Assembly: GCA_033763455.1 (NCBI GenBank)
Contig: JANRKO010000033.1
Span: 64,001-128,000 of the forward strand
Direction: 5' to 3'
Length of the DNA stretch: 64,000 bases
Origin: Polyangiaceae bacterium
GTDB taxonomy: Bacteria; Myxococcota_A; Polyangia; Polyangiales; Polyangiaceae
Shown: positions 22,082 through 41,503 of the stretch, piece by piece
Layout: every line of letters starts with the position of its first letter
Numbering within the stretch: position 1 is the first letter of the stretch
The notes under the pieces: generated by a model
Told to the model about the DNA's origin: nothing
Seen by the model: the letters and a program-made list of their open reading frames with translations, nothing else
Databases searched by the model: none
Position numbers and translations under genes: made by a program

Positions 22082-22392
22082 TGAGGTGCTCCTAGGGTTA
22101 GAGAGAGGCGGGAACCCTAAGGCTAGGCTCCCGGGGCAGCAAGCGTCAGGCCTGAGGCGGGGCTCACAAGCCGAGCGTTCCTGGGTGGCCCTCCGGGACC
22201 CGCCAAGCTCTCACCGGCACCTCCAACTATCCCTGATCGGCGCAATGCGCTTCAATGTTGAGAGTCGGCAGCCAGGTGCTCGGCATTGACTTTGTGAGCC
22301 CCAACGGCATTCTCCCGATCAACCACCCGGGCGGCCCGAGACACACGGTCGGTCCGCTGAACTTAGTTTTCGAGTATTTTTGGGAGCAAATC

Positions 22393-23244
22393 ATGAGCCT
22401 CGTAGCGCGATCACACAAGTCCGTCCTTCACACTCTTCTCCGAGCAACCGCAAGCGCAGGTCTACTGGCCGTAAGTCTTCCCGCGACCCTGGCGGGTTGT
22501 TCCTCGTCCGATAGCGGCAACGGCGGCAATGGCGGCGGCGGTGGTGCTGACCCTGGCACGGGAGACAAGACCGGTCTGCAGGTCTATCTCAAGCTTGACG
22601 AGAGCAGTATCGGGGCAGGACCGAAAGATACCGCCGGCAAGGTGACAGCCACGTATGGCGCGGTTAAGCCGACGGTCAGCGTGACGGCCGCCACGGTGAC
22701 TTTTGCTAATCCAGCGGCTCTAGAGTTCAAGGGCACGGAAACCGTAGAAATCCCGGCGTCTGACAACCTGAAGTGGACAGGCACCGAGAGCTACTCAATG
22801 TCGCTGTGGGCATTCCCTAAGGCTATGCCGCCCGCCAATAATTTCGCCGCTCTTCTGTCCAACAATCCCGGCGGAGAAAACGGCAACTACTGTGGTATCT
22901 ATATCCATAGCGCGGGCACCTGGTCCTTTGAGTCCAACGGTTACTTCCGACCCAACCCGGAGGTCCTCAGCGCGTCGCCGGTTGTCCTCAACAAGTGGCA
23001 GCATATCGTGATCGTGAACAACGCCATGGCTGGTAGCCAAACCATCTACGTGGATGGGGTGCCCGGATCTACCGTGCTCGCTCGGGCGAACGCCAACTGT
23101 GAGAGCTCCGCCACCTTCAGCATCGGCGCCAAAGACGGCGATGGCTATGTAGGCCTCATCGACGACGTACGTATCTACGGCCAAGCGCTCACCGAAGCTC
23201 AGGTGAAGGAGCTGAAGGACGGAGCCGAGAACATCACGCCGTAA
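22393..23244 (+). CDS. Lipoprotein with LamG/concanavalin A-like lectin domain
   Basis: GGGAG before ATG 22393; lipobox LAGC; Gly linker; YSMSLW, WQHIVIV, IYVDG and GLIDDVRIY..ALT. Confidence 0.88.
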   Translation: MSLVARSHKSVLHTLLRATASAGLLAVSLPATLAGCSSSDSGNGGNGGGGGADPGTGDKTGLQVYLKLDESSIGAGPKDTAGKVTATYGAVKPTVSVTAATVTFANPAALEFKGTETVEIPASDNLKWTGTESYSMSLWAFPKAMPPANNFAALLSNNPGGENGNYCGIYIHSAGTWSFESNGYFRPNPEVLSASPVVLNKWQHIVIVNNAMAGSQTIYVDGVPGSTVLARANANCESSATFSIGAKDGDGYVGLIDDVRIYGQALTEAQVKELKDGAENITP

Positions 23245-23533: not shown

Positions 23534-24535
23534 CTAGCGCAAACGCTCAACGAGTGCGGCAAACCAAGTGGCTCCCATGATTTCGTACCCTACGTCGTTT
23601 GGGTGGTAGTCATCGACCATGGTTTCAGCGCTTGGTCTGCCGGCGAGGGCAGCGTTCATATTCACGTACGCGATGTGCATCCCGGAGGCTGCGCGAGAGG
23701 CCACAAGGTTTGGGATCGCTTCGTTGTAGGCGGCGATCCCGGCCTGAAGCCCCGCGTCCGGGTTCGTGAGCGGAATGATCTGTGCCACTAGGATGAACGC
23801 CTCGGGTGCTTGGGCTGAGATCTGATCGATAAGCCCAGAAAGGTCGCTCGGCCTGGGCCGATCTGTCTGCTGCTCCTCAGCATCATTGGTCCCGATATGC
23901 AGGAGAATAACATGAGGCTTGTTGGCCTGGAGGGAGGCGCTTGTCAGGGCTTGAAGCTGAGCGATGGTGTAGCCGCTGTGACCTTCGTGCGCTTGGGGGA
24001 AAGGGACGGAATCAACAGTGCTTGGACCATTTGGCTCCCCAGATCCAACGAACGTTATTGCCTTGCCGGCTTCGGTGGCAGCGCGAAAAAGAGAGAGCCT
24101 ATAGCCGGCTTTGTGAGTCGACCCGACTCCAAACGTTATAGAATCCCCGAGCGGCAGGACCCTGCATGGAAGCCCGGCGCCGGGGCACGCCTGATAAGCC
24201 GAAGCACCACCCACAACTCCCTCGGAGCCCCCGCTTCCGCCAAGGCTCGCTCCACCGCCACTTCCAGTTCCTCCGGCACCCAGCGTCCCGGATGGAACTC
24301 CTCCCGTTCCTACTCTACCCGTCTGCACCTGTGCGCTTCCACCGAAACCAACGGATGCAGAGCCCCCTGCACCGCCGCTCGCGGCTATCGGCGCGTTCCC
24401 ACCCAGCCCGAGAGAAGACCCTCCCCCCTGCTGGCTCTGCGTGAGCGCAAGGCGAGGTGTGGCCGTTGGATCCCCGCAGCCCATGAGCAGCTGAACCAGG
24501 AGGAACATTGCCGCGATGGAGCGTGACCACGCCAA
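23534..24535 (-). CDS. SGNH/GDSL hydrolase lipoprotein (CE3-like carbohydrate esterase)
   Basis: Lipobox LMGC; Gly/Ser linker; blocks PLGDSIT, HEGHSG, HIGTND and DDYHP. Confidence 0.9.
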   Translation of the reverse strand: MAWSRSIAAMFLLVQLLMGCGDPTATPRLALTQSQQGGGSSLGLGGNAPIAASGGAGGSASVGFGGSAQVQTGRVGTGGVPSGTLGAGGTGSGGGASLGGSGGSEGVVGGASAYQACPGAGLPCRVLPLGDSITFGVGSTHKAGYRLSLFRAATEAGKAITFVGSGEPNGPSTVDSVPFPQAHEGHSGYTIAQLQALTSASLQANKPHVILLHIGTNDAEEQQTDRPRPSDLSGLIDQISAQAPEAFILVAQIIPLTNPDAGLQAGIAAYNEAIPNLVASRAASGMHIAYVNMNAALAGRPSAETMVDDYHPNDVGYEIMGATWFAALVERLR

Positions 24536-24552
24536 CGAAGAGAAGCAGGTGG

Positions 24553-26001
24553 TTACGACAAGAGCTCCGGCAGGGGGCCCTTACTCGGAACCATAAAGCC
24601 CTGCCCATCGGCATGCACGCCAAAGCCTGCTGACGGCGCACCAAGACCTTGGCCCATAGCGAGCAGCGCATCTTGAAAGCCAATCTCTGCGGAGCCTGGG
24701 TAGCGAATGTAGCGACCATCAAGCTTAAGACCCCCGGCCTTGCCAACCAGCACAAATGGCATGCGCAAGTGGCGAGAATGATGCGTCTCCCCATTGTCAC
24801 TCACGAGCATCGCCAACGCGTTGTCGAACAAGGTGCCATTGCCCGACGGGATGGTCTTGAGAGCGTCAAGTGTTGCGGCAACCATGCCGCTCATCCAAGC
24901 ATACACGCCGGCAATTACGGGTCCGTTGATCGGCTGATCCATGTGCCCAACATCACCAAGGCTTGTGCCATCCATACCATCGAGCGGCGTGCCGACGCGG
25001 AGCTTCGCTAGATCTGGCCCAAAATCGTGAGAATCTCCGCATCCGATATCGACCCCCATCACATTCGTCATGCCGCAGGTAAGCGCAATGCTCGCCATGG
25101 CGTTGAGCGCCTCGAGGCCGGCCACAGGTTCACCGGCTGCTCCAGCTGTGGGTGCGGTACCGCCTGTGCACGTGAGGTTTGCAGCGGCACTAAGGCTCTT
25201 TTCCTGTGCTTCAACCACGGCAAGGTACTTATCTAATTTCGCGCGCTCCTCACCCGCAAAATTCACCTTCAACCGATCCAAATCGTAGCGCAAGCCTTCA
25301 AAGATCAACCGATTCTTGACCGACGGTGTTCCCATCCCCGAAGCCTGCGTCATCGCCGTACCAAACAAGTCCTTGTAGAGCAGGGCTGGGCTCTGAAAGG
25401 AATCGATAGGCTGATTGGGACCACCAGCAAAGAGCATGGGCTTCATGTCTTTATCGACGTGGCTTGAAACACCGATAAGCACTGACTTTCTCGGTGTTCC
25501 CGCACCGATAGTATTGGCCAAATGCTGATCGTAGGTGATCCCGCCTGGCGTTACATTGTCGGGATCGGAGCCAGGCACGCAACTTAACGCCATATAGCCT
25601 AGACCGTGGCCCCCATCTTCACCCTTCCTTGGGTGGTTGCGGAGGCCATCCACCATCACCAACTGATTCCGGTAGGAGGCCTCCAGAGGTTTGAATGCAG
25701 CCGGCAGCGTGTATTCGGAAGAAGTCGCACTGATAAGTTTCGAGTTCGACGGCGACCCGGGCTCCTGCTGATTTTCTGGGGTCGGCTCGGGAAATTCCTT
25801 AGGTGTGAAGACCCAATAGGGGTTGATGCCATTGCAGGCCATCCAGAACATTGCAAGCTTCCTCGGTGCGTCTTGGCCACGAGCTTCACGAATGAGGTTG
25901 GAGGCGAGCGGAGCTAAGAGCGCAGCGCCCATTCCGAGCCCCATTTTCTCTACGAAAGACCGACGGCTGAAGGCGACTGACCTGCGGGAATTATCGATCA
26001 T
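24553..26001 (-). CDS. DUF1552 family protein, Tat-exported (cassette 1)
   Basis: SRRSF Tat motif; NG, T.DQ.LA, P..LY..LFG, KLD.YL, AL.CG.TNV, TLFDN and P.VL.G..GG features. Confidence 0.85.
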   Translation of the reverse strand: MIDNSRRSVAFSRRSFVEKMGLGMGAALLAPLASNLIREARGQDAPRKLAMFWMACNGINPYWVFTPKEFPEPTPENQQEPGSPSNSKLISATSSEYTLPAAFKPLEASYRNQLVMVDGLRNHPRKGEDGGHGLGYMALSCVPGSDPDNVTPGGITYDQHLANTIGAGTPRKSVLIGVSSHVDKDMKPMLFAGGPNQPIDSFQSPALLYKDLFGTAMTQASGMGTPSVKNRLIFEGLRYDLDRLKVNFAGEERAKLDKYLAVVEAQEKSLSAAANLTCTGGTAPTAGAAGEPVAGLEALNAMASIALTCGMTNVMGVDIGCGDSHDFGPDLAKLRVGTPLDGMDGTSLGDVGHMDQPINGPVIAGVYAWMSGMVAATLDALKTIPSGNGTLFDNALAMLVSDNGETHHSRHLRMPFVLVGKAGGLKLDGRYIRYPGSAEIGFQDALLAMGQGLGAPSAGFGVHADGQGFMVPSKGPLPELLS

Positions 26002-26013
26002 GGTAACGCTCCT

Positions 26014-27831
26014 TTAGTAGCTCCGCTTGAGGAAGGAATCGGAGGCCAGAAGCTCCGCAACGAACTCCAAATAACTTCCAGCTGGCACATACGCATCTTG
26101 GGCTTTCTTGAGGCTGCAGCTATCAAACGCCGTGGCAGAACGCCCCGAAAAGTACTGAAAGCCGTTAACCATCACGCACTGCTCAACGCGCTTACTGCCT
26201 CCCAACAAAGCCGAAAGCTCCACCGCATCCTTGAACTTTCCTGAAGCATCCCCAACGTCCACCAGAGTGCCGCTGCCATCAATGGGCTTGCCCTTGTCTA
26301 CCGTTCGGTAGGTGCCGATGGTGTCGTATATCTCGAATGCGAGCCCTGCTTCGTCGAGATTCGCGTGGCACGGCTTGCAGGACGTGTTTGCTTGGGCGTG
26401 AACCGCAAGGCGCTCGCGCATCGTGAGGGTCGTAGTATCTCCGAGTGGCGGCACGCCCTCAATTGGGACCGCTGGCACACCTCGGCACAGTATCTCAGTA
26501 TTCACAAACTTACCGCGACGCACGGGCAACGTGTCATCTCGCTTGGCCAACGCACCCATCAGCGCGGGGTGAGTAAGAAAACCCGATCGCTGCCCAGCAG
26601 GAGCCGCAGCCTTCATGTAGGGTTGCCCCTCTTGGGGACCGCCGGTCTGTCCGAACACAGCGGCCGTTGAGCAGTCGAAGAAAGTATCCGTTGTCGTGAA
26701 CAATGACCGAACAAACCCATTCGAGCCATTCGAAGCATACACACTGTCCACCAATGCCTGCGCCTGCGGAATTAGCTGCATCCGATTGTAGTGGCACGTA
26801 GCCACTTCGCCGGGCAGGATCATATCCGCCGCCTTTGGCACCGCCTGGATGCTCGGCAACTCAAAGTACTCCATCACGAAATTCCTTGCGTTAACCGAGG
26901 ACGGTGCCGACAACAGACGCTGGGCCTGTTGTTTGATCTGATCTGGGGTGCCAAGGGTACCATTGGTAGCTGCATCCCAGAGTGGCTGATCGGGCGGACC
27001 TCCGGTGAGCGCATAAGCCATGGAGGTGGCTGTTTCGAAGGGGGTGAGCACGGCCACTCCGGCCGTCGGCGTTGTCGCCCCGATCTCTGGGCGGAACAGG
27101 AACTGGGGAGCTAATAACATGCTCTGAAACGCCAACGCCAATGCACCGTCCGCGCCCAGCTCAGCGACGGCGGCCGCATCGGTCGCAAACTTGGTCACGT
27201 AGTGATCCTTCTCCTCCTGCGTAAGTGGCCTACGAAATAGGATCGCACCGCGATCGGCGAGCACCGTTGCCGCACATGCGGCAGAATTATCAGTGGCCCA
27301 GCAACTCCCGGGTTTCACTCGCGCGACGAGGGCTTGCGCCGAATCCCACGCGGCGGGAAGAGCCGCCCGGAACTCGGATTCACCGATGCTCAAGACGCCC
27401 GACTCAGTACTGTATTTACCCCCGGCAGGCTGCAGCGGCACCTTGAGTTCCGGCGGAAGGGCGGGAATCAGTACACTCGCATCTGCCGGTCGCCCATTGA
27501 GCGCCGCGGATACAGAAGCCGCGTACTGAGCTGGATTCAGCCTCCAAACGCGACGGGGCGGTGGTGCCTCAGCGGAAGTACTGCAGGCAAAGGGGTTGTC
27601 TATGGTGAGCGGGGGAACGACTGCCGGAGCTCCACCTGTACCTGGGGTGCTGATGCTGCCACCACTGCTCACTGATGCGCCGCCCACCGCGCTATTAGTC
27701 GACTGAGTGCCGCCTGCCGCGTCACCTCCGTTGCTTGCCGTATTAGACCGGGTACCACCCGCCCTTTCCACGCTGGAGGTGCAGGCTCCGGATAGCAAGG
27801 CGACACAAAACGTAGTTAGCAGATGACGCAT
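26014..27831 (-). CDS. DUF1592/DUF1588-family (PSD/PSCyt-type) lipoprotein with one CxxCH heme motif (cassette 1)
   Basis: Lipobox SGAC; RLN..QY, FRRPLT, P.FLFR.E, PPD, PVRRG.F, T.RERL..H, CKPCH and YD.IG.YR. Confidence 0.88.
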   Translation of the reverse strand: MRHLLTTFCVALLSGACTSSVERAGGTRSNTASNGGDAAGGTQSTNSAVGGASVSSGGSISTPGTGGAPAVVPPLTIDNPFACSTSAEAPPPRRVWRLNPAQYAASVSAALNGRPADASVLIPALPPELKVPLQPAGGKYSTESGVLSIGESEFRAALPAAWDSAQALVARVKPGSCWATDNSAACAATVLADRGAILFRRPLTQEEKDHYVTKFATDAAAVAELGADGALALAFQSMLLAPQFLFRPEIGATTPTAGVAVLTPFETATSMAYALTGGPPDQPLWDAATNGTLGTPDQIKQQAQRLLSAPSSVNARNFVMEYFELPSIQAVPKAADMILPGEVATCHYNRMQLIPQAQALVDSVYASNGSNGFVRSLFTTTDTFFDCSTAAVFGQTGGPQEGQPYMKAAAPAGQRSGFLTHPALMGALAKRDDTLPVRRGKFVNTEILCRGVPAVPIEGVPPLGDTTTLTMRERLAVHAQANTSCKPCHANLDEAGLAFEIYDTIGTYRTVDKGKPIDGSGTLVDVGDASGKFKDAVELSALLGGSKRVEQCVMVNGFQYFSGRSATAFDSCSLKKAQDAYVPAGSYLEFVAELLASDSFLKRSY

Positions 27832-27919
27832 AATATTACCGCCCTTGGCACAGCAAGCATTCGCCCGCTCCTAGCAACTGTGGGTACGCGTCAGATTAGC
27901 ATTCTCCGATTGCACCCGA

Positions 27920-27936
27920 CCTTACAAGCCACGCGC
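27920..27936 (-). promoter_or_regulatory. Putative regulator site GCGCGT-ggct-TGTAAGG (copy 1)
   Basis: About 90 bp upstream of the cassette 1 ATG; matches three other copies in this block. Confidence 0.55.
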
Positions 27937-27987
27937 CTATTCGGGCCGTACTTAATACTCGGATTTACGCAGCGGATCGCTGTCTGT

Positions 27988-29724
27988 TCAAGAGCGAGGA
28001 GGCGGAGTCATTTCAGAGAACGCCGTGTCGGCCACTGCATAAGCAATGCCTCGGCCTTTGCGCTCGATGCGACAAATACCATCCGAAACCAGCTGCTGGA
28101 GCGCCGCTTGCACCGTCCGCAATGGAATGGAAGTAGCTTTGGAGGCCGTTAACGCAGAGATTACACCCATCCGCGAGATTACCGCCAACACCGCAGTGGA
28201 GAGTGGCTGTGAGCAACGGGCATCGGGTACCACCAAGAGATCCGCGGTAAGTTGCAGCTTCAACGAGTTACCTAGTCTAACAACCTCGCCACGCGCACCG
28301 AGCTCTTGTCGCACGCGGTGCACCAATACATCCAAGGCCCCCTGGTGGCGCGCCGCTGAGAATGCGAAGCCGTGCACTACGCGAAAGAAATCCTCGCGTG
28401 AAAGACCATCTTTGTCGGCCAGCGAAAGCGCGGCGATGGCGGCGCGAGTGCGCCCGCCTCGGCGTTTTGTGTCAGCCATTACGGGCTCAAATGCCGAGAG
28501 CTCCGTCAGCGCATCGGGGCCGAAGAGGGGCAGCCCACGACGCAGCAAGCGCTGCGGCTTCCGAGCTCTTCCCGCGATTACAATCGCGAAGGGACCTGCG
28601 CTAGGCTCCTCCGTCGTGCACACCCCGTGAAGGCCCGCTGGCGGCAGAGAAATCTCTCCCGCCAGCCAGGGCTTGGCTTCAGCCACAGGCAGTGCCGCGG
28701 GATCCATCAACGAAAGCAGCAGACACGCCTCGCGGTGACCCGGCTGAAAGCCAGAGGTAAAGGTGAGCATTGCGTGGACAGCCGCATCGAAGGCAGCGCG
28801 TGCGCCAACGCTGGCACTTTCGAGTGCGTTGTTGAGAGATATCGCAGCCTGGGTACTGCGAGAACCAGCTTCGCCGCTCAGGCGCTGAAGCATGCCGCTG
28901 GCCATTTCCGGGCCACCCGCCAAGAGTAGCTCCCACCCGAGCCAAGGGCCGAGTGCCTGAGGAGCGACGCCCGAAAGGGCAATAAGGATGCGGGAAGCGG
29001 CGTACGGTTTATCAGCATAACGACGAAACCGGGCGAGCACGAGATTGGCGAGACATACCCAATAGGGGAGGCCTTCAGAGGTGGCCATCAGCGACGCTCG
29101 ACGCGCAAAGCCGTGTGCTTCGGTCACCGCACCGAGCTCCAAAGCTACCAGCGCTCGAAGCGCCGTGACCTCTATGACCAGTGGCCCTGCCCCCTGTGCC
29201 GACACGAGCGCAAAAAGCGCCTTGAGCTCCTCCTCCAGCCCGGCAGTTTCGCCGCGCATGAACCTCAGCCACACCTGTGCGACGCTCAACCAGGAGGCTA
29301 GACTTGGCTCAGACAGGTGGCCGTGAAACTTCACCCAGCGTTCGAGGGCGATATCATCGAACGCAAGCACTGCCGAACGCTCGGCGAGCATTGCCATATG
29401 TGAGTACCCGAGCCGCACGTCCGCGTCTTCTGATACGGGGAAAGCATCCGGCTCGGAAGCAGCAACTTCACGGGGATAGCTGGCGAAGAGCCAGGCGCTA
29501 TGCTTCAGGTTCTTCTGCCACAGCGAGGCGGCAACGCTCCCATCTGCTTCTAACTCCTGGCACAGCGCGGAGACTTCAGTTGAATCGCCGGCACGAATCT
29601 TCCCGAGAACCTCAAGGATTCGGAGAGTAAGGGCTTCAGAAGGCGGCACACGTGTTACGCTGCAGGATAGCCGCGGCGCAGTGCGAAGACCAGCGTCCCG
29701 AGATACACTCTTGGTTGCCCCCAT
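27988..29724 (-). CDS. Putative transcriptional regulator: helical/TPR-like N-terminus and two C-terminal winged-helix domains
   Basis: LSREDFFRVVHG...ALDVLVHRVRQELG resembles OmpR/Trans_reg_C; ISALTASKATSIPLRTVQAALQQLVSDG.C.IERKGRGIAY is a second wHTH; start uncertain. Confidence 0.7.
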   Translation of the reverse strand: MGATKSVSRDAGLRTAPRLSCSVTRVPPSEALTLRILEVLGKIRAGDSTEVSALCQELEADGSVAASLWQKNLKHSAWLFASYPREVAASEPDAFPVSEDADVRLGYSHMAMLAERSAVLAFDDIALERWVKFHGHLSEPSLASWLSVAQVWLRFMRGETAGLEEELKALFALVSAQGAGPLVIEVTALRALVALELGAVTEAHGFARRASLMATSEGLPYWVCLANLVLARFRRYADKPYAASRILIALSGVAPQALGPWLGWELLLAGGPEMASGMLQRLSGEAGSRSTQAAISLNNALESASVGARAAFDAAVHAMLTFTSGFQPGHREACLLLSLMDPAALPVAEAKPWLAGEISLPPAGLHGVCTTEEPSAGPFAIVIAGRARKPQRLLRRGLPLFGPDALTELSAFEPVMADTKRRGGRTRAAIAALSLADKDGLSREDFFRVVHGFAFSAARHQGALDVLVHRVRQELGARGEVVRLGNSLKLQLTADLLVVPDARCSQPLSTAVLAVISRMGVISALTASKATSIPLRTVQAALQQLVSDGICRIERKGRGIAYAVADTAFSEMTPPPRS

Positions 29725-31999
29725 GTCTGGCCCTTCGCTGGCGAAAGCTCAAAACATCTCGCCCTACGTACCGCTCGCCAACCTCGCCGCCGGTGGCATG
29801 GCGGAGGTAACGCTTTGCGTGAAGCGCGATGGGCGCTTTGAGCGTTTGTACGCGCTCAAACGACCATTGCCTCAGTTTCGGCTCGACCCGGGCTTCCGGG
29901 AAATGTTCCTCGACGAAGCGCGGGTGGCTGGAGTTGTTCACCATGCCAATGCCGTAGGTGTTGTTGATTTCGGGGAGGATCAGGACGGGCTCTTTCTGGC
30001 CATGGACTTCGTCGAAGGAGTCTCAGTGGCTCATTTGCTCTCGGCAGTAATGCCCAAAACGAGCCTTCTGCCTGTCCAAGCTTGCGTGACGATTGCCTCT
30101 CAGGCAGCCCGCGGCTTGCACGCAGCCCACGAAGCGAAAACTGCCGATGGCCACCCCCTACATATCGTTCACCGGGATGTATCACCTAGGAATATACTTG
30201 TTGGCTACGATGGGGTTGTTCGAGTGGCCGATTTTGGGATTGCGAAGGCACTCGGTAACGCGTTTCGCACCTCTACTGGGATCCTTAAGGGCAGCCTCGG
30301 GTACATGTCGCCAGAGCTCCTCAAATTCCAAACGCCCGATAGGCGCTCGGATCTTTTCTCCCTCGGGATCGTCCTTTTTGAATTATTAACCCGTGAGCGC
30401 CTCTACACGCATACCGAATCCGCGATCGCTCCGCACCGAATTCTGAACGAAGCGCCGCCCGATGCCGGAGAATTTCGCGAAGATCTTCCCCCAGAGCTGG
30501 TGGAGCTGCTCTTCGAAATGCTGGCTAAAAACCCTGATGATCGCCCTCCAACCGCGGAACAGGTTGCTCAACGCTTGGAGAGTATTCTTCATCTGCTTGC
30601 AGCCGAGGAGGGCGCTTTCGATCTTTCTAGCTTTCTTGCCGAGCAATTTGGCGAAGAACGGGAAAAGCTTCGTTCCGATATCCAACGGCAGCTCGCGTCG
30701 CTGCGCGAAGCCCCCAACCAGTCCCGGGAAGAAGCGCGCCCCGAACAACTGGACGCCGTATCGCAGGTGTCCTTGCACCGACGAAGCTGGGCAAAGCCAT
30801 TTATCGGGATAGTCGCCCTCTCCCTCGTCGGGGTGGTCGCGTGGGGCGAGATGGGCGATAAAGGAAAGCCCATAGAGGGAGCTACTCAGCGAGCAATGGC
30901 TCCAGCAAGCAAGCCGAGGAACCCCGAGGCGCGCGGAGTGCAGAACGTTTGGGCGGGCGCCTGGCATTCCTGTGCCACCCGTCAAGAGCAGTTGTTTTGT
31001 TGGGGCAAAAATGGAGATGGCCAGCTTGGAGAAGGAACCTATGGGGATCGAGGAGAACCGTACCCGGTGCCGCTGCACGATGTGAGCATGGCTTCGGGCG
31101 GCAACTTCCACACTTGTGCCGTTAAGCAAGGTGGGCAGTTGTACTGCTGGGGGCGAAACACCGAGGGGCAGCTGGGGTTGGACCCAGCAAAGGTACCCAG
31201 CGCTCCCCAGCCAACCCCTTTGCCAACGATGACCGACGTCATCGCCTTCGATGCGGGGGACTTCGCGAGCTGCGCCGTACGACGCGACGGCAGCGTTTGG
31301 TGTTGGGGTAAACTATTACCGGAGGGCCAACCCCCGCCACCGGCATTCTCGCCGCGCGGCGCTCCTCGTCGCATGCCAGGACTCGATGACGCCATAGCGG
31401 TCAGCGTGAGCGAATCACATGCTTGCGCGCTTCTGCGGGCGGGCACGGTGCTGTGCTGGGGCTCCAACACGCACGGGGAGTTGGGGAGTACACAGCAGAA
31501 CTTCTCGCCCACCCCGCTCGCGGTGCCGGGGGTAAGTGGGGTAATCCAAGTGGGCACGGGAGCTGGTTTTACCTGCACGCTCTCCTCACGGAATCGGGTG
31601 TCCTGCTGGGGCGACAATTCGACTGGCCAGCTGGGGATCGGAGCGGCTACCCGTGTAGCGCGAGAGCCTCGTACGATCGAACACCTCGATGGGGTCAGCC
31701 AGATCTCCGTCAGCGACGCCTGGGCATGCGCACGGCACGCTTCAGACCAAGTCAAATGTTGGGGCAACGGGACTTGGGGCAATCTAGGGAACGGCGGGCT
31801 GGACATGCAGTACACACCCGTGAGGGTTCAGCAACTAGAGGACGCTATTTGGCTCACCACGGGCAGTCAGCACGCATGCGTCCGTCGCAAGACCGGAGCA
31901 TTGGCGTGTTGGGGGCTCAACTCCAGCGGACAGCTGGGGGACGCAAGCGGAGAGTCGCGCACGATTCCAGTGAGCCCCACGACGCCGCCGCCGCTTTGA
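29723..31999 (+). CDS. Membrane Ser/Thr protein kinase with extracytoplasmic RCC1/BLIP-II repeats
   Basis: GGMAEV, ALKR, HRDVSPRN, DFG, YMSPE, SDLFSLG; TM segment FIGIVALSLVGVVAW; seven H.CA...CWG.N..GQLG-type repeats. Confidence 0.93.
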   Translation: MSGPSLAKAQNISPYVPLANLAAGGMAEVTLCVKRDGRFERLYALKRPLPQFRLDPGFREMFLDEARVAGVVHHANAVGVVDFGEDQDGLFLAMDFVEGVSVAHLLSAVMPKTSLLPVQACVTIASQAARGLHAAHEAKTADGHPLHIVHRDVSPRNILVGYDGVVRVADFGIAKALGNAFRTSTGILKGSLGYMSPELLKFQTPDRRSDLFSLGIVLFELLTRERLYTHTESAIAPHRILNEAPPDAGEFREDLPPELVELLFEMLAKNPDDRPPTAEQVAQRLESILHLLAAEEGAFDLSSFLAEQFGEEREKLRSDIQRQLASLREAPNQSREEARPEQLDAVSQVSLHRRSWAKPFIGIVALSLVGVVAWGEMGDKGKPIEGATQRAMAPASKPRNPEARGVQNVWAGAWHSCATRQEQLFCWGKNGDGQLGEGTYGDRGEPYPVPLHDVSMASGGNFHTCAVKQGGQLYCWGRNTEGQLGLDPAKVPSAPQPTPLPTMTDVIAFDAGDFASCAVRRDGSVWCWGKLLPEGQPPPPAFSPRGAPRRMPGLDDAIAVSVSESHACALLRAGTVLCWGSNTHGELGSTQQNFSPTPLAVPGVSGVIQVGTGAGFTCTLSSRNRVSCWGDNSTGQLGIGAATRVAREPRTIEHLDGVSQISVSDAWACARHASDQVKCWGNGTWGNLGNGGLDMQYTPVRVQQLEDAIWLTTGSQHACVRRKTGALACWGLNSSGQLGDASGESRTIPVSPTTPPPL

Positions 32000-32081
32000 G
32001 CAACTCAAGGTTCACGTTTATCTGCCTTTCCTCGGCGTATGCGAAAAGCCTACGCAGGCCGCCCAGCATATGAGGCGAGAA

Positions 32082-33539
32082 TCAGGCCAAAAGCGCCCCT
32101 AACGGGCCTTGATTGTATTCCGGCAACCCGAACGTTGTTGCCCCAACATCGTACGCATTCAAGATCGTAACCAAAAGATCGTTCACTTTTCTGGTCTTGT
32201 CCGCAATAGGGTCCGCCACTCGAACATGGCGACCTGTTTTGAATGTCGCATTCACATTCCCCAAGGTGAGCAGGGGGATATTCACGCTATTGTGGTTTTG
32301 TGCGTTCCCCATACTCTGCGTGTAGAGAACCAGTGTGTTATCAAAGGCACCAAAATCTTTGAGCCTTTGCGCTAAAAGAGCATACTGCTCAATGTTCCAG
32401 GTGGAGACCTTAATATACTGCTCTGCCCAATCGATCCAGACGGCATCTGCTGGGCCGGTGGTTGGTGCAAGGTGAGATAGGTCGTGCCAAGCACCCTTGT
32501 TCCCGAGCCATGGGAAAGGAAGATTATTGCCCTCTACAGCCATTTGAAAGCTGGCAACCCTAGTGAGATCACAAGCTAACGCCATTGCAAGCAACTCGAA
32601 CTGGGTAGCAACCAGCTGCGGCATGATATCCAGCAGCGTCTGCTCGGACCCTTCAGCCACGCGGCGCCCGGCGACACAATCCGAAGGAGTTGAACCACAC
32701 TGGATCGGCTCGGCAGGCTTCTGGCACCCCACTGCGGCGATCCGCGAAATGGACTGCTCAACTGCGCGGAACGATGTGAGATACTGATCGAGCTTTTGCT
32801 GGTCATTTTGACCCAGCCGGGTTCTTAGGGAACCCGCCTGCTGGAGTGCGAAATCCAAGACCGAGGCATCTTCCTGCCGAAGCGCATCGGCTTGGCTAGC
32901 ATCGCCGCTGATCCCGGCAAACAGTTGTTCCCATACCAAGTGCGGGACGTCCTGCGCGGGTGCTGCCTGAAGCGGACCAGACCAAGAGCACGCTCCGTGT
33001 GCGCCAGTACCAGGCTGGGTAAATACGCCGAGCTGGATGGATGGATACCGCGTGTCTTTGCTAATGTACTTGGCAAGCTCATGGTCAATGGAGATGCCGT
33101 TGCCCATGAGGGGATCGTCATCCGACCCAGTCACGGGGTTGATGGGCGGCATTCCGGTGAGCATTGAAGCGTAGGCTGGATGATTGCCGAACGCATTCTC
33201 AAGCCCTTCGATCACGAGCAGATCACTCCGCCATGCCTCCAGCGGTTTCAGGATGGGTGAGAATTGAAAATTGGGGTCATCAAGCGGTGTCCGCCCGGAG
33301 TACGGATACTTCATCATCTGCCCGGCGCTGAAATCAAACGCGGGCATCCCTGGCCAGAACGCTTCCCCTAACGTGGCAAAAGGCTGAGCAAACGCGACGA
33401 ACCGGGGTGGCGCTGTTACCGCCTGCCCTCGCCCCAGGCTTTCGAACAAAGGAAGAGAAATCACGCACCCGGCGCCGCCCATCAAGAGGGCACGTCGTGA
33501 AACAGTTCGAGACATCGACGGTCTTACTATTCTCATCAT
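32082..33539 (-). CDS. DUF1552 family protein, Tat-exported (cassette 2)
   Basis: SRRALL Tat motif; SPIL.PL, SIDHELA, SVLD, KLDQYL, ALACDLTRVAS and WHDLSH. Confidence 0.9.
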   Translation of the reverse strand: MMRIVRPSMSRTVSRRALLMGGAGCVISLPLFESLGRGQAVTAPPRFVAFAQPFATLGEAFWPGMPAFDFSAGQMMKYPYSGRTPLDDPNFQFSPILKPLEAWRSDLLVIEGLENAFGNHPAYASMLTGMPPINPVTGSDDDPLMGNGISIDHELAKYISKDTRYPSIQLGVFTQPGTGAHGACSWSGPLQAAPAQDVPHLVWEQLFAGISGDASQADALRQEDASVLDFALQQAGSLRTRLGQNDQQKLDQYLTSFRAVEQSISRIAAVGCQKPAEPIQCGSTPSDCVAGRRVAEGSEQTLLDIMPQLVATQFELLAMALACDLTRVASFQMAVEGNNLPFPWLGNKGAWHDLSHLAPTTGPADAVWIDWAEQYIKVSTWNIEQYALLAQRLKDFGAFDNTLVLYTQSMGNAQNHNSVNIPLLTLGNVNATFKTGRHVRVADPIADKTRKVNDLLVTILNAYDVGATTFGLPEYNQGPLGALLA

Positions 33540-35248
33540 AGGGACCCCTTGGGTCGGTACACAAACTCATCAAGAACAACGAGCCGACGCAGCAGGCTCT
33601 TGTAGTCACCACCGGTGGCCGCAACGCCAGTAGCAAGCGCTTGTACTGACGGGAAACGTTCCACACTCGGGGAGCGGCCAAATGCGAACCGGTACCACTG
33701 TTGAGCGAAACACTGTTGCGCCTGGGAGCTTGCCGCGTACTTCTGCCCCAACTCCACCGCTCCCTTAAAGTCCCCAATGTCGCTCTGGTAGGCGGCCCCG
33801 GTGTCGTCGACGGTGACGCCGTTTTCCGTCTCGCGGTATTGCCCTATCGCATCGTAACGCTCAAGTCCAAAGCCGAGAGGATCCAGCAGCTGGTGGCACG
33901 GAGCGCACCCGGGGGCGTTGGTGTGTGCCGTAACGCGTTCCCGCACCGTACTCGCGCCAGATACATCGTTAGCAAGCAGCGGCACGTCTTTCGGTGGAGG
34001 CGGCGGATCTTGGCATAAGAGCTGCCTCCTAATAAACGCAGCTCGTCGAACAGGGGAAGTCCGATCAAAGCCCTCGAAAGCGAGGAATCCGGCCCTGGAA
34101 AAGAGCCCCGATCGCGTGGAAGCATCCAGTGTCACGGGTTCAAACGCCGCCCCGGCGGGCCCACTCACTCCATAGAAGCGCGCAAGCTCTGCATTGGCGA
34201 AATCACTATTGCTGGTGAAGAGGTCCTCAAACCCGCGCGAGCTCTCCCACGCAGCATGGTCTACGAATAGCTCAAGCTCCTTTCGAAAGGCATCTCGCAT
34301 CTCGATCTTCCAAGTGGGAAAGGCCGAGGGATCCTTATTCAGGGAGTCCGTACGGCTGAACTCCAGCCATTGCCCATGAAAGAGAGCAACGCTTTCACGC
34401 GCTCGCGGATCGCTGAGCAACCGCTCAAACTCGGAGTTTACCTGTTCGGGCGATTTAAGTGCGTCCGCAGTCGCAAGGGCGAGTAATTGCGGATCTGGGG
34501 TTGAGTTCCACGCCAAGTATGACAGGCGCGAGGCCATCTCAAAAGACGTTGGGCGGGCCAGACCCGGCTTCCCTGCGATCTCGACGCCATCACCGAATTC
34601 CACGCGATAAAAGAAAGGGGCCGAAATGAATAGGGCTTCGACCACCAGCTCAACGCCCCTTGCAAAACTACGCTTATTGCCAGTTTGAAAGACCGCGGCA
34701 AGCCCAGCGGATTCTTCGGCAGTCACCGGTCGGCGTAAGACGCTCTTGCCAAAGGAATCGATGAACTGTTGTGCACATGCCGCATCCGGCGCGACTGCCG
34801 CGCACGGAACATACTGGCTCAAGTTGTTGCCCACACGTGCCGCAATTTGTTTCGAAGCGGCCAGCGCTTTCTCCGCGAGGAGCGGCGGAAAGGTGAGCGC
34901 AAACGCGTTGTTCGTAAACCCGCGAACTACCTCCTCCCCGGGAAAATTGTAGGCAAGGCCAAGGTCGATGTTCAAAATATCGCGGACGCTGTGATCGTAC
35001 TCACTTCGCGTAAGGCGGCGCATGACCACCGGCTCATCAGCAAACTGAGTGCCAGGCTCAGCCGCCGACCCAGGGTTCATGCCAACAAAAGTTGGTACTT
35101 GTGGAACCGACGTGGGCTCAGAGATCGGTTCGGGGGCGGCGCCTCCTGAGCCACGGCGTGCACCCTCAATATTCCCCTGGCAGCCCAACGCCGCGAGGAA
35201 AAGCGCGTGGCCAAGAGTTGCGAAACGGAATCGTTGATAGCAAGGCAT
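33536..35248 (-). CDS. DUF1587/1595/1592/1588/1585-type lipoprotein with CxxCH (cassette 2)
   Basis: Probable start MPCYQ with lipobox ALGC (the ORF is open to 35479); RRLT..EY, RRP, ASRLSY..W...PD, TSPVRR, CAPCH and LGFGLE.YDAIG.YR. Confidence 0.9.
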   Translation of the reverse strand: MPCYQRFRFATLGHALFLAALGCQGNIEGARRGSGGAAPEPISEPTSVPQVPTFVGMNPGSAAEPGTQFADEPVVMRRLTRSEYDHSVRDILNIDLGLAYNFPGEEVVRGFTNNAFALTFPPLLAEKALAASKQIAARVGNNLSQYVPCAAVAPDAACAQQFIDSFGKSVLRRPVTAEESAGLAAVFQTGNKRSFARGVELVVEALFISAPFFYRVEFGDGVEIAGKPGLARPTSFEMASRLSYLAWNSTPDPQLLALATADALKSPEQVNSEFERLLSDPRARESVALFHGQWLEFSRTDSLNKDPSAFPTWKIEMRDAFRKELELFVDHAAWESSRGFEDLFTSNSDFANAELARFYGVSGPAGAAFEPVTLDASTRSGLFSRAGFLAFEGFDRTSPVRRAAFIRRQLLCQDPPPPPKDVPLLANDVSGASTVRERVTAHTNAPGCAPCHQLLDPLGFGLERYDAIGQYRETENGVTVDDTGAAYQSDIGDFKGAVELGQKYAASSQAQQCFAQQWYRFAFGRSPSVERFPSVQALATGVAATGGDYKSLLRRLVVLDEFVYRPKGSL

Positions 35249-35372
35249 AGCACTTACACTCACGTACCCAACAAGCAGAGGGGTGTGGCGCCTCCACACG
35301 AACACGCGGAGGAAGCGCGTGGAATGAGAGAGTAGCATTGCTAGGTCCTCGTATCGGTAGGGCCGTGAGTAT

Positions 35373-35389
35373 ACGCAACGAATGTAAGC
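35373..35389 (+). promoter_or_regulatory. Putative regulator site ACGCAA-cgaa-TGTAAGC (copy 2, more degenerate)
   Basis: In the divergent region between cassette 2 and the beta-helix gene. Confidence 0.4.
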
Positions 35390-35542
35390 TCTCGCGGTTG
35401 CAAGAATCTCGCAAAGCAGGAAAGCGGCGCCGCCCGGCTTCGGTACTTTCGAGCTATTGAGGTTGTTCCCGAGCTCCACCCCGAGTTGACACCACCAGGA
35501 AGGGGCACCGAATGCTAAGGCTCAAATGAAGGTTGCTGTCGG

Positions 35543-37495
35543 ATGAATCGAACACTGCTCCTGCTAATCTGCTTGTGCCTGGTCTCCTGTTCTTTGCCCC
35601 CTCCTGTGCCCAAAGATGGCGCGTGGCGAGTGGGCCGGGCTGAGCAACCGCCACACACCGCTTCCCCCGTTGCCATGGAAGGCGCTGAGCAGGCGCGTGA
35701 TGTGCTGTTCCCGGCTGATTCCAACGTGGTGAACGTGCGCCTCCCCCCCTATTTTGCGAAGGGCGATGGCGTCACGGACGACACGCGCGCGATCCAAAAG
35801 GCCCTTTCGGACCACCCCAATCAGGACAGCATCATCTACCTGCCAGCCGGTACTTACCTGATAAGTGATACCTTGCGCTGGGGCTCAGGAAAGCACGGAG
35901 GAGAAGCCCAGAAGCGAACCATCCTACAGGGTCAAGGAGCGCATCGGACGCGGCTCCAACTTGCCGATAATTCCCCGCGCTTTCGAGCCTTGGAGCGGGC
36001 GCCAAACGGGGATGCCCAATCCAAAGCCATGATCTGGACGGGGGAACGGCCCGCACAACGTTTTCGCAACGGGATTCGCGACATTACCGTTGATATCGGG
36101 CTCGGCAACCCGGCGGCCACAGGTATCCAATATATTGCCAACAATCAAGGAAGCCTCAGAAATGTGGTGGTGCGTTCACGAAGCGGTGGGTTTGTGGGGC
36201 TCGATCTCGGCTACACGGACGAGCAAGGGCCGTGCCTCATCAAGAATGTCGAAGTCATAGGTTTTGCCACAGGCGTTCGCACTCGATTCGCGGTGGACAG
36301 TGTGACGCTTCAGCAGATCCGCGTTCAGAACCAGTCGGAAGTGGGCTTTCTGAACGACGGCCAGTCCATCAGTTTGGAGTCCTTCAGTAGCACGAACTCA
36401 GTGCCAGCCATCAAGAACATGAGCCGATCGAGCCTTCTGGTACTTATCGGTGCCGAGCTCGATGGCCAGGGCAGCCGTGGCCCCGGCATCGAAAACTCGG
36501 GCTACGCACTCCTACGCGACGTGCGTTCAACGGGCTACGATGCAACGCTCAAGGATAAAGGCAGTAGCACGACGCTCCGAGGCAACATCCGAGAGTGGTT
36601 GAGCCATCCGGCAGACAAGCTGTTTGCAGATTCACCCAAGGAAACGCTCAGGCTTCCCATCCGTCAGACGCCGCTCCGGCCTGATATCCCACTCAGCGAA
36701 TGGGCGTCTCCTTTGGAGTTTGGTGCGATTGCGAACGACAACAAGGACGACACCGAGGCTCTTCAGCGTGCCGTGGATTCAGGAAAGCGTGTCGTCTATC
36801 TGCCCCGAAACGGGCTAACTCTAGACGGGACACTGCACATCCGGGGTAACGTCGAGGTCTTCGATGGCTTGGAGGCGCTGCTGCTGGGCACAGGCACGCT
36901 TTCCTTTGAGCCCACCGCCGGACGAACGCAGTTCTTCGAACGAACCGATCTTCGTTACGAGAAGGTCAACATCATTCATGCTGGGCAAGGAGAGCTGGTG
37001 ATGAGCAGTGTCACCTCAGACGGCGGGAGGTTCGATTACCGAGGGCGGGGTGCACTTTTTCTTGAGGACGTCGTCATGGGAGATCTGCTCGTTCCGAAGG
37101 GAGGCCAGGTATGGGCTCGGCAGCTGAACATCGAATCCCATGGGAGCACCCGGCTAAGGAACGACGGCGGCAGCGTGTGGGTTTTGGGGTACAAAACCGA
37201 ACAGCATGGGATTGTGGCCGAAACGCTGCACGGTGGAACCACAGAAATTCTTGGTGGCCTCGTCTACTCGCAGGGCCAGCCCAAAGACACTCCCATGTTC
37301 GTGATCGACAACGCGGCATTCTCGGCTTCCATCGCTGAGGTTTCGTGGAACTTTCAGCGTCAGGGCTATCACACCTTAGCTCGTGAAACGCGCGGCCCGG
37401 TTACACGAGAGCTCGCAGGCGGCGCGCGCGCGGGGCGCCTTTGGCATGCGAACGACGCATCTATGGTCCTGCTCTACTCGGCCTATTCACGCTAA
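35543..37495 (+). CDS. Lipoprotein with tandem pectate-lyase-3-type beta-helix domains (GH55-like architecture)
   Basis: Lipobox LVSC; AKGDGVTDDT.AIQ.A...IYLPAGTYLIS; second GAIAND.KDDT.ALQ.A..VYLP; RQLN.E and LG.KTE. Confidence 0.88.
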   Translation: MNRTLLLLICLCLVSCSLPPPVPKDGAWRVGRAEQPPHTASPVAMEGAEQARDVLFPADSNVVNVRLPPYFAKGDGVTDDTRAIQKALSDHPNQDSIIYLPAGTYLISDTLRWGSGKHGGEAQKRTILQGQGAHRTRLQLADNSPRFRALERAPNGDAQSKAMIWTGERPAQRFRNGIRDITVDIGLGNPAATGIQYIANNQGSLRNVVVRSRSGGFVGLDLGYTDEQGPCLIKNVEVIGFATGVRTRFAVDSVTLQQIRVQNQSEVGFLNDGQSISLESFSSTNSVPAIKNMSRSSLLVLIGAELDGQGSRGPGIENSGYALLRDVRSTGYDATLKDKGSSTTLRGNIREWLSHPADKLFADSPKETLRLPIRQTPLRPDIPLSEWASPLEFGAIANDNKDDTEALQRAVDSGKRVVYLPRNGLTLDGTLHIRGNVEVFDGLEALLLGTGTLSFEPTAGRTQFFERTDLRYEKVNIIHAGQGELVMSSVTSDGGRFDYRGRGALFLEDVVMGDLLVPKGGQVWARQLNIESHGSTRLRNDGGSVWVLGYKTEQHGIVAETLHGGTTEILGGLVYSQGQPKDTPMFVIDNAAFSASIAEVSWNFQRQGYHTLARETRGPVTRELAGGARAGRLWHANDASMVLLYSAYSR

Positions 37496-37565
37496 CACTT
37501 AACGTAACGCGGCCTCGCGAGGTTGAAGCGCGAGCCCCGGCCCCCCGGGCGCGAACAAATAGAGG

Positions 37566-38915
37566 CTAAGCTAGCTCCGGCAAGAGCTTGGTTCCGTAGA
37601 CTCCAAACTTCGTGGCGGGCACACCGACAATATTGAGAATGGTAAGCAGCAGATCGTCGTAATTGGCGCGCTGGGCGGATGCATACCGAACATGCTGACC
37701 AAGCTTGAGCTTGCCACCAGCGTGCCCAGCCACAATCACCGGAACATTGGAGAAATCATGGGAGACGCCCAAGCCGCACTCGCTAGCGAAGAACACCAAT
37801 GAATTGTCGAGTAGGTTCGTGGCACCCTGCATCGCCGCCTTCATTAGGCGCAAACCGTACGCAAACTGCTCCATTTCGTCGACAACAATCTTGGTTTGCG
37901 CTTCTATCCCCTCTGGGGATTCAAGGTGGGAGATACCATGGTGGCCATCCAGCTCATCCACCAAATTCAGCCATGGAAACTGGCGCTTATTGCCTCGGCT
38001 GGCCAGCATGAAGCTGCCCACGCGGGTGAACCCACACGCGAACGCCATCACCTGCAGACGGATCAAGAGCTGAGCGTGCTCGTTTGAGTAGGCCCCCGAC
38101 ATGTTGTCAATGTCAGGTGCCGACCCTCCGAGCCGACCATCGAAGGTCATCTCGCTGTTGCATTCGGCAGTGCTAGTAATCGGCAAGGCCAGCCGAGCCT
38201 CCAGTTCTCGGACAGAAGTGAGGTATTCGTCCAGCCTGTGCTTGTCAGCGTGGCTTATCTGCGCGCTCAAATCCGTGACATCCACCCTCACGTAGTCCAA
38301 GACGCTTTGACGATAGTCCGCAACCCCAACTGCCGGTTTTCCGAAAAGCTTCTCAAACAAGACGGCCGCGTCACGCTCCGCAGGCACCGGAGTAGCTCCG
38401 GATTGCCAGGAGATCTGGTCGGCAACTTCCCCACGCAAGCCGCCGAGTGCCACCGGGAGTGACTTGAAGCGACTCATCTTCCCAAGCTCGCCAGCTGCCA
38501 CTTGATCCATCGATGCGAACTCAACAGTGGTGGCACTTGCGAGCGAACCTCCTGTGGCGAAAGATGCATGCCCACGCTGATGAGCATCGTTGTTGATGCT
38601 CTGATTTCTCAACGCCTCCTGCTTGCGCAGGCCCTGGATGATACTGAAATCCTGTCTGAATTCGGCTATTGGCACCAGGCTTCGGGTGAGCTCATAGGCG
38701 CTCCCGGTGGCCACCGGCCACCACGCATCAGGGACTACGCCGTTTGGGATAAAGAATGTTAATAGGTTAACCGGAATATTCGTCTGGCCGTGAGCCGTTC
38801 GCAGCAGGCCATTGTCCGTCAACATGGCATCCAGAATGGGCAGCCCGAGGCACACGCTACTTCCGGCGCCAAAACCTCGGAGCAAATGTCGGCGCGAAAC
38901 GCGAATCGGCTTCAT
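37566..38915 (-). CDS. DUF1552 family protein, Tat-exported (cassette 3)
   Basis: SRRHLLRG Tat motif; LP.LDAM, PNG, SMDQ..A, SVLD, RLDEYLTSVRELE, HHGISH and LLDNS. Confidence 0.92.
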   Translation of the reverse strand: MKPIRVSRRHLLRGFGAGSSVCLGLPILDAMLTDNGLLRTAHGQTNIPVNLLTFFIPNGVVPDAWWPVATGSAYELTRSLVPIAEFRQDFSIIQGLRKQEALRNQSINNDAHQRGHASFATGGSLASATTVEFASMDQVAAGELGKMSRFKSLPVALGGLRGEVADQISWQSGATPVPAERDAAVLFEKLFGKPAVGVADYRQSVLDYVRVDVTDLSAQISHADKHRLDEYLTSVRELEARLALPITSTAECNSEMTFDGRLGGSAPDIDNMSGAYSNEHAQLLIRLQVMAFACGFTRVGSFMLASRGNKRQFPWLNLVDELDGHHGISHLESPEGIEAQTKIVVDEMEQFAYGLRLMKAAMQGATNLLDNSLVFFASECGLGVSHDFSNVPVIVAGHAGGKLKLGQHVRYASAQRANYDDLLLTILNIVGVPATKFGVYGTKLLPELA

Positions 38916-40624: not shown

Positions 40625-40831
40625 AGTGTTCCTTTCTGAGACTATTCCCGAGCGGTGCGCGGGCGGGCGTCGACCGTTGTGTGCAGCCTATCCCTTTTGT
40701 CTAACTTCGAGAATGGACAATACGATTTCAGCTTCAAGCTCGCGACAGTCGACGAGCACGTCAATCCACAACAAATACAGCTTCACATTGTATTTAAGGT
40801 TTCATTTACCCGCCACCCAGCAACTCCGTGT

Positions 40832-40848
40832 GCGCATGATCTGTAAGG
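40832..40848 (+). promoter_or_regulatory. Putative regulator site GCGCAT-gatc-TGTAAGG (copy 3)
   Basis: In the divergent region between cassette 3 and the DUF2341 remnant, about 90 bp before ATG 40939. Confidence 0.55.
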
Positions 40849-40938
40849 CCAAAGTGGCTGATCTTCGATTGCCAGTGACTGTATCTTTCGTTCGCGTCCT
40901 CGACGAGGAACACTCCATCTCGCCGCTCTGGTAATTCT

Positions 40939-41481: not shown

Positions 41482-41503
41482 GCTTCGCAGAAGGGGCACC
41501 AGC

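Follow-up and report, generated by a model that had tools for sequence, protein, structure and literature searches.

One-to-one wiring between a kinase and its cognate regulator is regarded as a hallmark of the histidine–aspartate (His–Asp) two-component systems. In Mycobacterium tuberculosis the genes pknH and embR are neighbours as well, and AfsK–AfsR of Streptomyces is a system similar to PknH–EmbR. According to the passages of PMC4601284 that deal with it, EmbR combines an OmpR-type winged helix-turn-helix (wHTH) with a TPR-like BTA domain and is phosphorylated by the receptor Hanks kinase PknH, with docking via FHA. The same passages name several kinases that phosphorylate EmbR, and bacterial Hanks kinases are described there as usually pleiotropic with few dedicated partners (PMC4601284). 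Here we describe a kinase–regulator gene pair of a Polyangiaceae bacterium (Myxococcota), located in a stretch of 64,000 nucleotides (nt) that we call the window (GenBank assembly GCA_033763455.1, contig JANRKO010000033.1, positions 64,001–128,000; all coordinates below are those of the window unless a locus is named). The pair consists of a receptor serine/threonine (Ser/Thr) kinase with an RCC1 propeller and a divergently transcribed regulator with two predicted wHTH domains. A short reading of the same DNA, made without database searches and referred to as the original prediction, had proposed a possible non-histidine signalling switch, in which the kinase would phosphorylate the regulator and the two different DNA-binding domains might recognise two unlike half-sites of a DNA motif.

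PknH–EmbR is the closest functional precedent for this pair. Both combine a receptor-type Hanks kinase with a factor that has a TPR-like helical domain and a wHTH, which is of the OmpR type in EmbR and probably OmpR-like here. The order of these domains is reversed, however: EmbR and other SARP-type factors start with the wHTH followed by the BTAD, whereas in the regulator studied here a predicted solenoid (residues 1–345) precedes the first wHTH (residues 398–475). Unlike EmbR, the regulator has no BTAD or FHA match, and it carries in addition a second wHTH from another class as well as a conserved tail. While EmbR is served by several kinases, the regulator has one dedicated kinase clade that is co-inherited with it one-to-one, and this linkage is unusually strict for a kinase/transcription-factor pair of the PknH–EmbR kind. 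The pair would operate with the logic of a classical two-component system, but neither a His kinase nor a receiver domain with a phospho-acceptor Asp is present, and the chemistry would be Ser/Thr phosphorylation. Throughout one class of Myxococcota the two genes are co-inherited, and they therefore probably represent a dedicated non-histidine signalling pair. We found no paper on the regulator family or on a pairing of RCC1 kinases with such regulators, in a literature search that lay outside subscription journals.

Results

Linkage and co-inheritance of kinase and regulator

A sample of 301 genomes of the class was searched with a profile of the regulator family, and the regulator was called at E ≤ 1e-30. 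For 40 homologous loci from other genomes (L numbers), up to 6 kb on each side of the regulator was taken and all open reading frames (ORFs) were scanned with the window kinase domain by phmmer. The original prediction depended on homologues of the regulator being linked to kinases, and this is what we observe: in 38 of the 40 loci a kinase of one and the same clade lies within 6 kb of the regulator. The kinase scores 238–345 bits (E 1e-71 to 1e-104, with a threshold of E < 1e-50) against the window kinase domain in 37/40 loci, and in L062, where it is cut by the contig end, 124 bits. The head-to-head layout of the window recurs in 25/40 loci. In the others with a clade kinase the two genes are co-directional (L023, L084, L085, L051, L087 and L062), divergent at a distance of about 3.4 kb (L060, L080, L082 and L083) or convergent at 4–6 kb (L061, L065 and L076).

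The background of kinases in these organisms amounts to 80 Pkinase matches in the 6.56 Mb genome of the window and to at least 115–140 in four relatives. The best other kinase of the window genome reaches 197 bits against the window kinase domain. A FastTree phylogeny of 112 kinase domains was calculated from the window kinase, 72 further kinases encoded in its genome, the 37 partner kinases and two others from the loci. The partners and the window kinase form a single clade of 38 members with support 1.0 and without any intruder.

The regulator is present in 25 of the 301 genomes of the class sample. All 25 also possess a clade kinase, in comparison to only one (G319) of the 276 genomes without the regulator, so that clade-level kinases occur in 26 genomes altogether. 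A kinase was counted as clade-level at a score of at least 261 bits and an identity of at least 49%, and G235 was included by a truncated match that is 56% identical. In three genomes of the same genus (G001–G003, 94–95% complete) the pair was not found, and their best kinase scores at most 203 bits. In G013 and G019, which belong to the same family, a clade kinase lies beside the regulator. Within the genus, the pair thus seems to be part of the gene content that varies between genomes. Across the phylum, the regulator family was detected in 5 of 301 sampled genomes, all of them within the order of the window.

Kinases and regulators have also diverged together, as their distance matrices correlate with r = 0.726 over 35 pairs. 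When partners were re-paired within the six genomes that carry several pairs, none of 5000 re-pairings reached this value (mean 0.609, maximum 0.725). Therefore, the pairs duplicate and diverge as units, beyond what the phylogeny of the species alone would produce. Co-localisation, co-inheritance and co-divergence, the three traits that mark a cognate kinase–regulator pair, are all found here. The coupling of the two genes is strongly supported, and the proposal that they act as a signalling pair gains support from the linkage to a single kinase clade and by the near-perfect shared presence and absence.

The receptor kinase and its RCC1 propeller

The kinase gene (29723–31999, forward strand, stop included) encodes 758 residues from its ATG, as delimited by the ORF, the Pfam matches and an N-terminus like that of other clade kinases. 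The kinase domain (29780–30571, forward strand) matches Pkinase (PF00069) with E 1e-35 and 123.8 bits, compared to a cut-off of 31.7. Counted from the ATG, the catalytic residues are K46, H150-R151-D152, D170-F171-G172 and P197-E198, which do not vary among 36 aligned clade kinases, and the intact motifs reported earlier are thereby confirmed. Judged by the Pkinase fold and by the Lys, HRD, DFG and APE-type motifs, all of which are present, the protein is a Hanks-type (eukaryotic-like) Ser/Thr protein kinase.

A hydropathy scan predicts a single transmembrane helix, WAKPFIGIVALSLVGVVAWG, at residues 356–375 (30788–30847, forward strand), in line with the one helix noticed before. In 27/37 partner kinases a transmembrane helix is likewise predicted 46–75 residues past the kinase domain. 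The C-terminal part of the kinase (30974–31996, forward strand) is an RCC1-repeat beta-propeller, based on Pfam matches to WD40_RLD (PF25390; E 1.3e-69, 235.7 bits, cut-off 150), RCC1 (PF00415; 3.6e-41) and RCC1_2 (PF13540; 3.3e-42), the latter two models each covering six stretches. Since one hydrophobic helix separates kinase and propeller, the propeller is predicted to lie outside the cytoplasm. The external RCC1 propeller of the original prediction is thus strongly matched as a domain, and its outside placement follows from the topology inferred from this helix.

An RCC1 protein is encoded within the locus in 16 of the 40 homologous loci, fused to the kinase in four and as a separate ORF in 12; the whole window genome contains ten RCC1 ORFs. 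Inspected by eye, 10/12 of the separate RCC1 proteins start with a lipoprotein-like hydrophobic stretch that ends in Cys, and these proteins are probably lipoproteins. Because the propeller is fused to the kinase in some loci and separate in others, we suggest that it is the external sensor of the module.

Architecture of the regulator

No family of Pfam or NCBIfam matches the regulator above its cut-off, and only a sub-threshold match to HTH_41 appears near the C-terminus. The regulator family comprises 714 representative clusters (counted at 50% identity) when an exhaustive HMMER search is cut at E ≤ 1e-3 and 417 when it is cut at E ≤ 1e-30; most are about 540 residues long. The nearest clusters in the ESM Atlas are labelled "hypothetical protein" and derive mostly from Myxococcota. 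An AlphaFold2 model based on an alignment of 88 sequences reached a pLDDT of 93.2 and a pTM of 0.93. It predicts an all-alpha N-terminal part, a beta-hairpin at residues 355–369 followed by two short helices, two winged helices, and a tail of residues 540–553. Thus, the helical N-terminus and the C-terminal wHTH folds expected from the sequence are both reproduced by the model, the latter as two dissimilar winged helices. No match to Response_reg, to NTPase/P-loop domains or to LuxR was obtained with Pfam and NCBIfam (receiver at E ≤ 0.1). This agrees, as does the all-alpha N-terminal model, with the earlier remark that receiver domain and P-loop are missing. Neither did Pfam at E ≤ 0.1 reveal FHA, BTAD or any other recognised phospho-binding domain.

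Residues 1–345 (28615–29649, reverse strand) are modelled as a TPR-like alpha-solenoid of 18 helices, which is predicted to be a sensor or docking domain. VIA matched it to phage Rap (Z 20.8, 308 residues aligned, root mean square deviation (rmsd) 4.2), MalT domain III (Z 19.6) and AimR (Z 18.2), all above the best Z of about 14 that is usual for helical models, and further to NprR (Z 14.4) and PlcR (Z 14.1). Foldseek found Rap, NprR and MalT with E-values between 7e-4 and 9e-3. The superposition on the sensor solenoids of RRNPP proteins, AimR and MalT domain III covers the N-terminal 326 residues. This likeness concerns the fold only, and the identity to the regulator is just 6–11%. RRNPP proteins and AimR bind secreted peptides. 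They carry an N-terminal XRE-type helix-turn-helix, which is absent in Rap, whereas the regulator has C-terminal winged helices. The position of the DNA-binding part C-terminal to the solenoid is shared with MalT. In MalT and other LAL proteins, however, a STAND NTPase precedes the solenoid and a LuxR helix-turn-helix follows it, and the regulator lacks both, with a solenoid that begins at residue 3. To our knowledge, none of RRNPP, AimR and MalT pairs with a Hanks kinase.

The second winged helix (residues 483–539; 28033–28203, reverse strand), consisting of three helices and a hairpin, is clearly MarR/ArsR-like in the model. Its profile matched the ArsR-family structure 6uvu in the PDB with E 8.5e-7, and VIA returned MarR, ArsR, IclR and ROK domains with Z 9–10.8, all on residues 135–197 of a separate model of the C-terminal part (residues 348–553, see below). 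Among them were AntR (Z 10.5) and MarR-family chains with Z 9–10 and rmsd 1–2.6 over 57–65 residues. Two homologues of the regulator have a precomputed PF12802 match. The recognition helix contains a conserved PLRTVQ motif, in which R511, T512 and Q514 are conserved. Compared to MarR and ArsR regulators, which comprise about 100–150 residues and have dimerisation helices or metal sites of their own, the regulator counts 553 residues and the wHTH is its fourth module.

For the first winged helix (residues 398–475; 28225–28458, reverse strand), three helices and a beta-hairpin wing are predicted by the AlphaFold2 models, with hhalign and Foldseek matches. An alignment to eight Trans_reg_C domains of the same genome by hhalign gave P 0.0023 and a probability of 12% over 49 columns, in a register that places GLSREDFF...HRVRQELG on the OmpR-type alpha2–alpha3 signature. 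The DNA-binding domain of SaeR was matched by profile with E 0.07 and by Foldseek with E 8.5e-3 (74 columns, TMt 0.56, rmsd 2.5). Pfam gave no match at E ≤ 0.1 and a single-sequence search of the PDB returned nothing. Matches to the second wHTH took up the VIA results for the C-terminal model, which therefore hardly cover the fold class of the first. Taken together, the first wHTH is probably OmpR-like, with moderate support. Of the proposed succession of an OmpR-like and a different wHTH, the winged helix at the first position and the MarR/ArsR-like nature of the second are therefore upheld, and the label OmpR is retained at moderate strength only.

A separate AlphaFold2 model of residues 348–553 (pLDDT 90.6) was compared by Foldseek to AspA, a single DNA-binding winged helix, with an rmsd of 1.0–1.4 over about 60 columns. 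The tandem winged-helix proteins ScpB and ESCRT-II aligned to the C-terminal model loosely, at E 2e-5 to 6e-4 with an rmsd of 14–16 Å. Like ScpB, ESCRT-II and RPC34/TFIIIC, the regulator has two consecutive winged helices in one chain. Plasmid Rep initiators use one of two winged-helix domains for each half of an iteron, a precedent that would fit the proposed recognition of two unlike half-sites by one monomer; no Rep initiator was among the matches listed for the C-terminal model by Foldseek and VIA.

A conserved Thr-rich tail

The regulator ends in ...DTAFSEMTPPPRS, and the translation confirms the terminal TAFSEMT that had been noticed before. Within it, DTAFSEMT (residues 541–548; 28006–28029, reverse strand) corresponds to the family consensus DTTFxEPT and directly follows the second wing. 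Ser or Thr occupies the position of T542 in 95%, that of T548 in 94% and position 543 in 85% of 88 sequences; T542 and T548 are the two most conserved Ser/Thr columns of the whole protein. We regard the tail as a candidate for a phospho-acceptor or docking peptide.

The window genome (G000) also encodes two divergent paralogues of the regulator, at C11:16574-18277 (forward strand; L002) and C33:140805-142109 (reverse strand; L003). They score 386 and 342 bits, respectively, against the family profile, and no kinase adjoins either of them. Orthologues of both types occur in the three same-genus genomes without a clade kinase, so that the two lineages extend over G000–G003. All eight sequences of the L002 and L003 types lack the tail, in contrast to D-T-[TVA]-F in every member of the window type, an association of tail and kinase that comprises only two independent paralogue lineages.

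Start codons and the shared promoter region

Two ORFs face away from each other, at 27988–29724 (reverse strand) and 29681–31999 (forward strand), and both genes, that of the kinase and that of the divergent regulator, are real. The nearest ATG codons indeed overlap in a CATG at 29722–29725, as noted originally. Translation of the regulator most likely begins with the GTG at 29649, and the longer version from the ATG at 29724 is unlikely. This assignment is made because the orthologue P0001, which is 92% identical, begins at the position of V26 (GTG 29647–29649), because the alignment to the family profile begins only there, and because a −10-like TACACT seen by eye at 29705–29710, 12 nt before the kinase ATG, would lie inside the supposed extension of 25 codons. 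The regulator coding sequence would then cover 27988–29649 on the reverse strand (553 residues, stop codon 27988–27990) and leave a likely intergenic region of about 73 nt (29650–29722). The little or no intergenic space claimed before is thus probably wrong. This shared divergent promoter region has a spacing similar to that of 24 head-to-head loci: in most of these 24 measurable loci 67–240 nt separate the residues at which the alignments of the two proteins begin, with 110 nt in the window and outlying values of 1 nt in L077 and 460 nt in L089.

By eye, TAnAnT-type −10-like hexamers were seen about 6–14 nt before the likely kinase starts of the window (29705–29710) and of L054, L055, L057, L059, L067, L070, L071 and L078. 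Their placement suggests that the kinase mRNAs may be leaderless or have very short leaders. A palindrome, ACACGTGT, was spotted at 29648–29655, where it overlaps the GTG start of the regulator. Palindromes of the type ACACGTGT or CACGCGTG are visible in or near the shared promoter of the window, L053, L066, L068, L070 and L086. These palindromes are not enriched over shuffles, and in the window those like CACACGTGTG are not enriched, either (20 found, 27 expected). A repeat search of 24000–42000 yielded repeats at chance level only. One direct repeat of 16 nt (15/16 bases identical) links 29703–29718 in the kinase promoter region to 40392–40407 in the 5′ part of a DUF1592-type gene, a match that, roughly estimated, is to be expected by chance in a stretch of 18 kb.

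Neighbouring genes

Three tandem pairs, each of a DUF1592/DUF1588/DUF1595-type gene followed by a gene for a DUF1552 (HXXSHH) protein, are located at 24553–27831, 32082–35479 and 37566–40624, all on the reverse strand, and two of them flank the kinase–regulator pair. Genes of these families also adjoin regulator homologues in L064, L080, L082, L083 and L087. These genes may be controlled by the regulator, or they may just be abundant in these genomes. A Laminin_G_3 (concanavalin-like) protein is encoded a few genes from the pair (22255–23244, forward strand), and a similar protein of 343 residues directly downstream of the regulator in L059 (1740–2771 of that locus). In L074, L077, L080, L082 and L083 a convergent gene for a TPR protein of about 250–290 residues lies directly downstream of the regulator; at least three of these five loci come from closely related genomes.

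Discussion

We cautiously favour the view that kinase and regulator form a dedicated, co-inherited module of one Myxococcota class, in which the kinase signals to, and most likely phosphorylates, its cognate transcription factor. In such a module the receptor Ser/Thr kinase, a single-pass protein from a distinct clade, would sense an outside signal via the RCC1 propeller, which is fused to the kinase here and would be provided elsewhere by a separate RCC1 protein encoded nearby. The activated kinase would signal to the divergently transcribed cytoplasmic regulator, a putative transcription factor composed of TPR solenoid, OmpR-like wHTH, MarR/ArsR-like wHTH and Thr-rich tail. It would bind and phosphorylate this cognate partner, with the tail DTTFxEPT after the second wing as the best candidate site, and phosphorylation would alter how the two winged helices bind DNA. 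The targets of the regulator probably include the shared promoter of 70–100 nt, resulting in autoregulation. What the data show is the conserved linkage, the joint inheritance and divergence of the two genes and the predicted folds; physical contact, phosphorylation and its site, the binding of DNA and the regulon are inferred.

Several observations weigh against this reading. In two loci (L056 and L072) no clade kinase lies within 6 kb, and the other 13 loci with a kinase are not head-to-head. The loci are not independent of each other, as several share a genus (for example L080, L082 and L083) and some genomes contribute three to four, and the ORF calls in them are crude. The kinase threshold was chosen with knowledge of the scores, which show a gap from 261 bits down to 240 bits (at most 46% identity), and genome G061 lies just below it with 240 bits and 45% identity. 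In the 24 head-to-head intergenic regions no 8-mer, with one mismatch allowed, was enriched over dinucleotide shuffles, in an operator search that counted strands twice, equally in the real regions and in the shuffles. The regulator lacks an FHA domain, and its tail, instead of being a phospho-site, could be a structural element that caps the wing. Scaffolds that do not bind DNA, such as ScpB, ESCRT-II and PCI proteins, can have tandem winged helices, too, and a conserved divergent pairing would be expected without any substrate relation as well.

The latter point bears on the possibility that the regulator is a local transcription factor, which senses a cytoplasmic ligand or peptide via its TPR solenoid, in the manner of MalT, Rap/NprR and AimR, and controls the kinase gene and itself, while the kinase acts on other proteins. 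Regulators classically lie head-to-head with their target genes across a short shared promoter, as is the case in 25/40 loci. Moreover, the N-terminal domain most resembles ligand- and peptide-binding sensors of transcription factors (Z 18–21), and the missing FHA domain fits such a role, too. However, the strict co-inheritance persists in 13 loci in which the genes are 3–6 kb apart, co-directional or convergent, and the pair-specific co-divergence together with the link between tail and kinase points to a protein–protein coupling beyond promoter control. We therefore consider this explanation rather unlikely on its own; it is compatible with the regulator being a substrate of the kinase.

Very unlikely, in our view, is a regulator that does not bind DNA and serves the kinase as a scaffold or adaptor, using its winged helices for protein contacts and recruiting substrates or localising the kinase. 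Foldseek does align the whole model to PCI proteins of the proteasome lid and COP9, which consist of a solenoid and a winged helix, and the C-terminal half to the tandem winged helices of ScpB and ESCRT-II at the E-values given above. Yet these alignments have an rmsd of 14–22 Å and TM scores of 0.2–0.3, and single DNA-binding wHTH domains match more tightly (AspA with rmsd 1.0–1.4, MarR/ArsR with Z 10–11 and rmsd 1–2.6). In addition, the second wHTH matches ArsR by profile (E 8.5e-7) and keeps the Arg, Thr and Gln of the recognition helix. That the two genes are unrelated and adjacent by coincidence, as might be imagined in a genome with 80 Pkinase matches and two regulator paralogues without an adjacent kinase, is effectively refuted by the one-clade kinase in 38/40 loci and by phylogenetic profiles that agree in 25 of the 26 genomes concerned among the 301 sampled.

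A more elaborate version of the phosphorylation model, which we regard as speculative and unlikely to hold as a whole, would make the pair a Ser/Thr counterpart of two-component systems with a tethered-peptide switch. Here, the tail DTTFxEPT of the regulator would sit in the groove of its own Rap/AimR/MalT-like solenoid, as peptides do in RRNPP proteins and AimR. Phosphorylation of the tail threonines by the cognate RCC1-receptor kinase would release or lock the tail, and the two unlike winged helices would re-orient, so that one monomer could read a composite, asymmetric operator. If true, such a switch would provide a one-to-one specificity of kinase and factor that is unusual for Hanks kinases.

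Independent of these details, a large unnamed family of 714 clusters shows, at the genome level, the marks of a cognate partner to a single kinase clade. If the regulator is phosphorylated by its kinase, the pair would offer a genetic handle on how Ser/Thr kinases achieve specificity, on what bacterial RCC1 propellers sense outside the cell, and on how DNA is read by two unlike winged helices in one chain. In that case, hundreds of "hypothetical proteins" of Myxococcota could be annotated.

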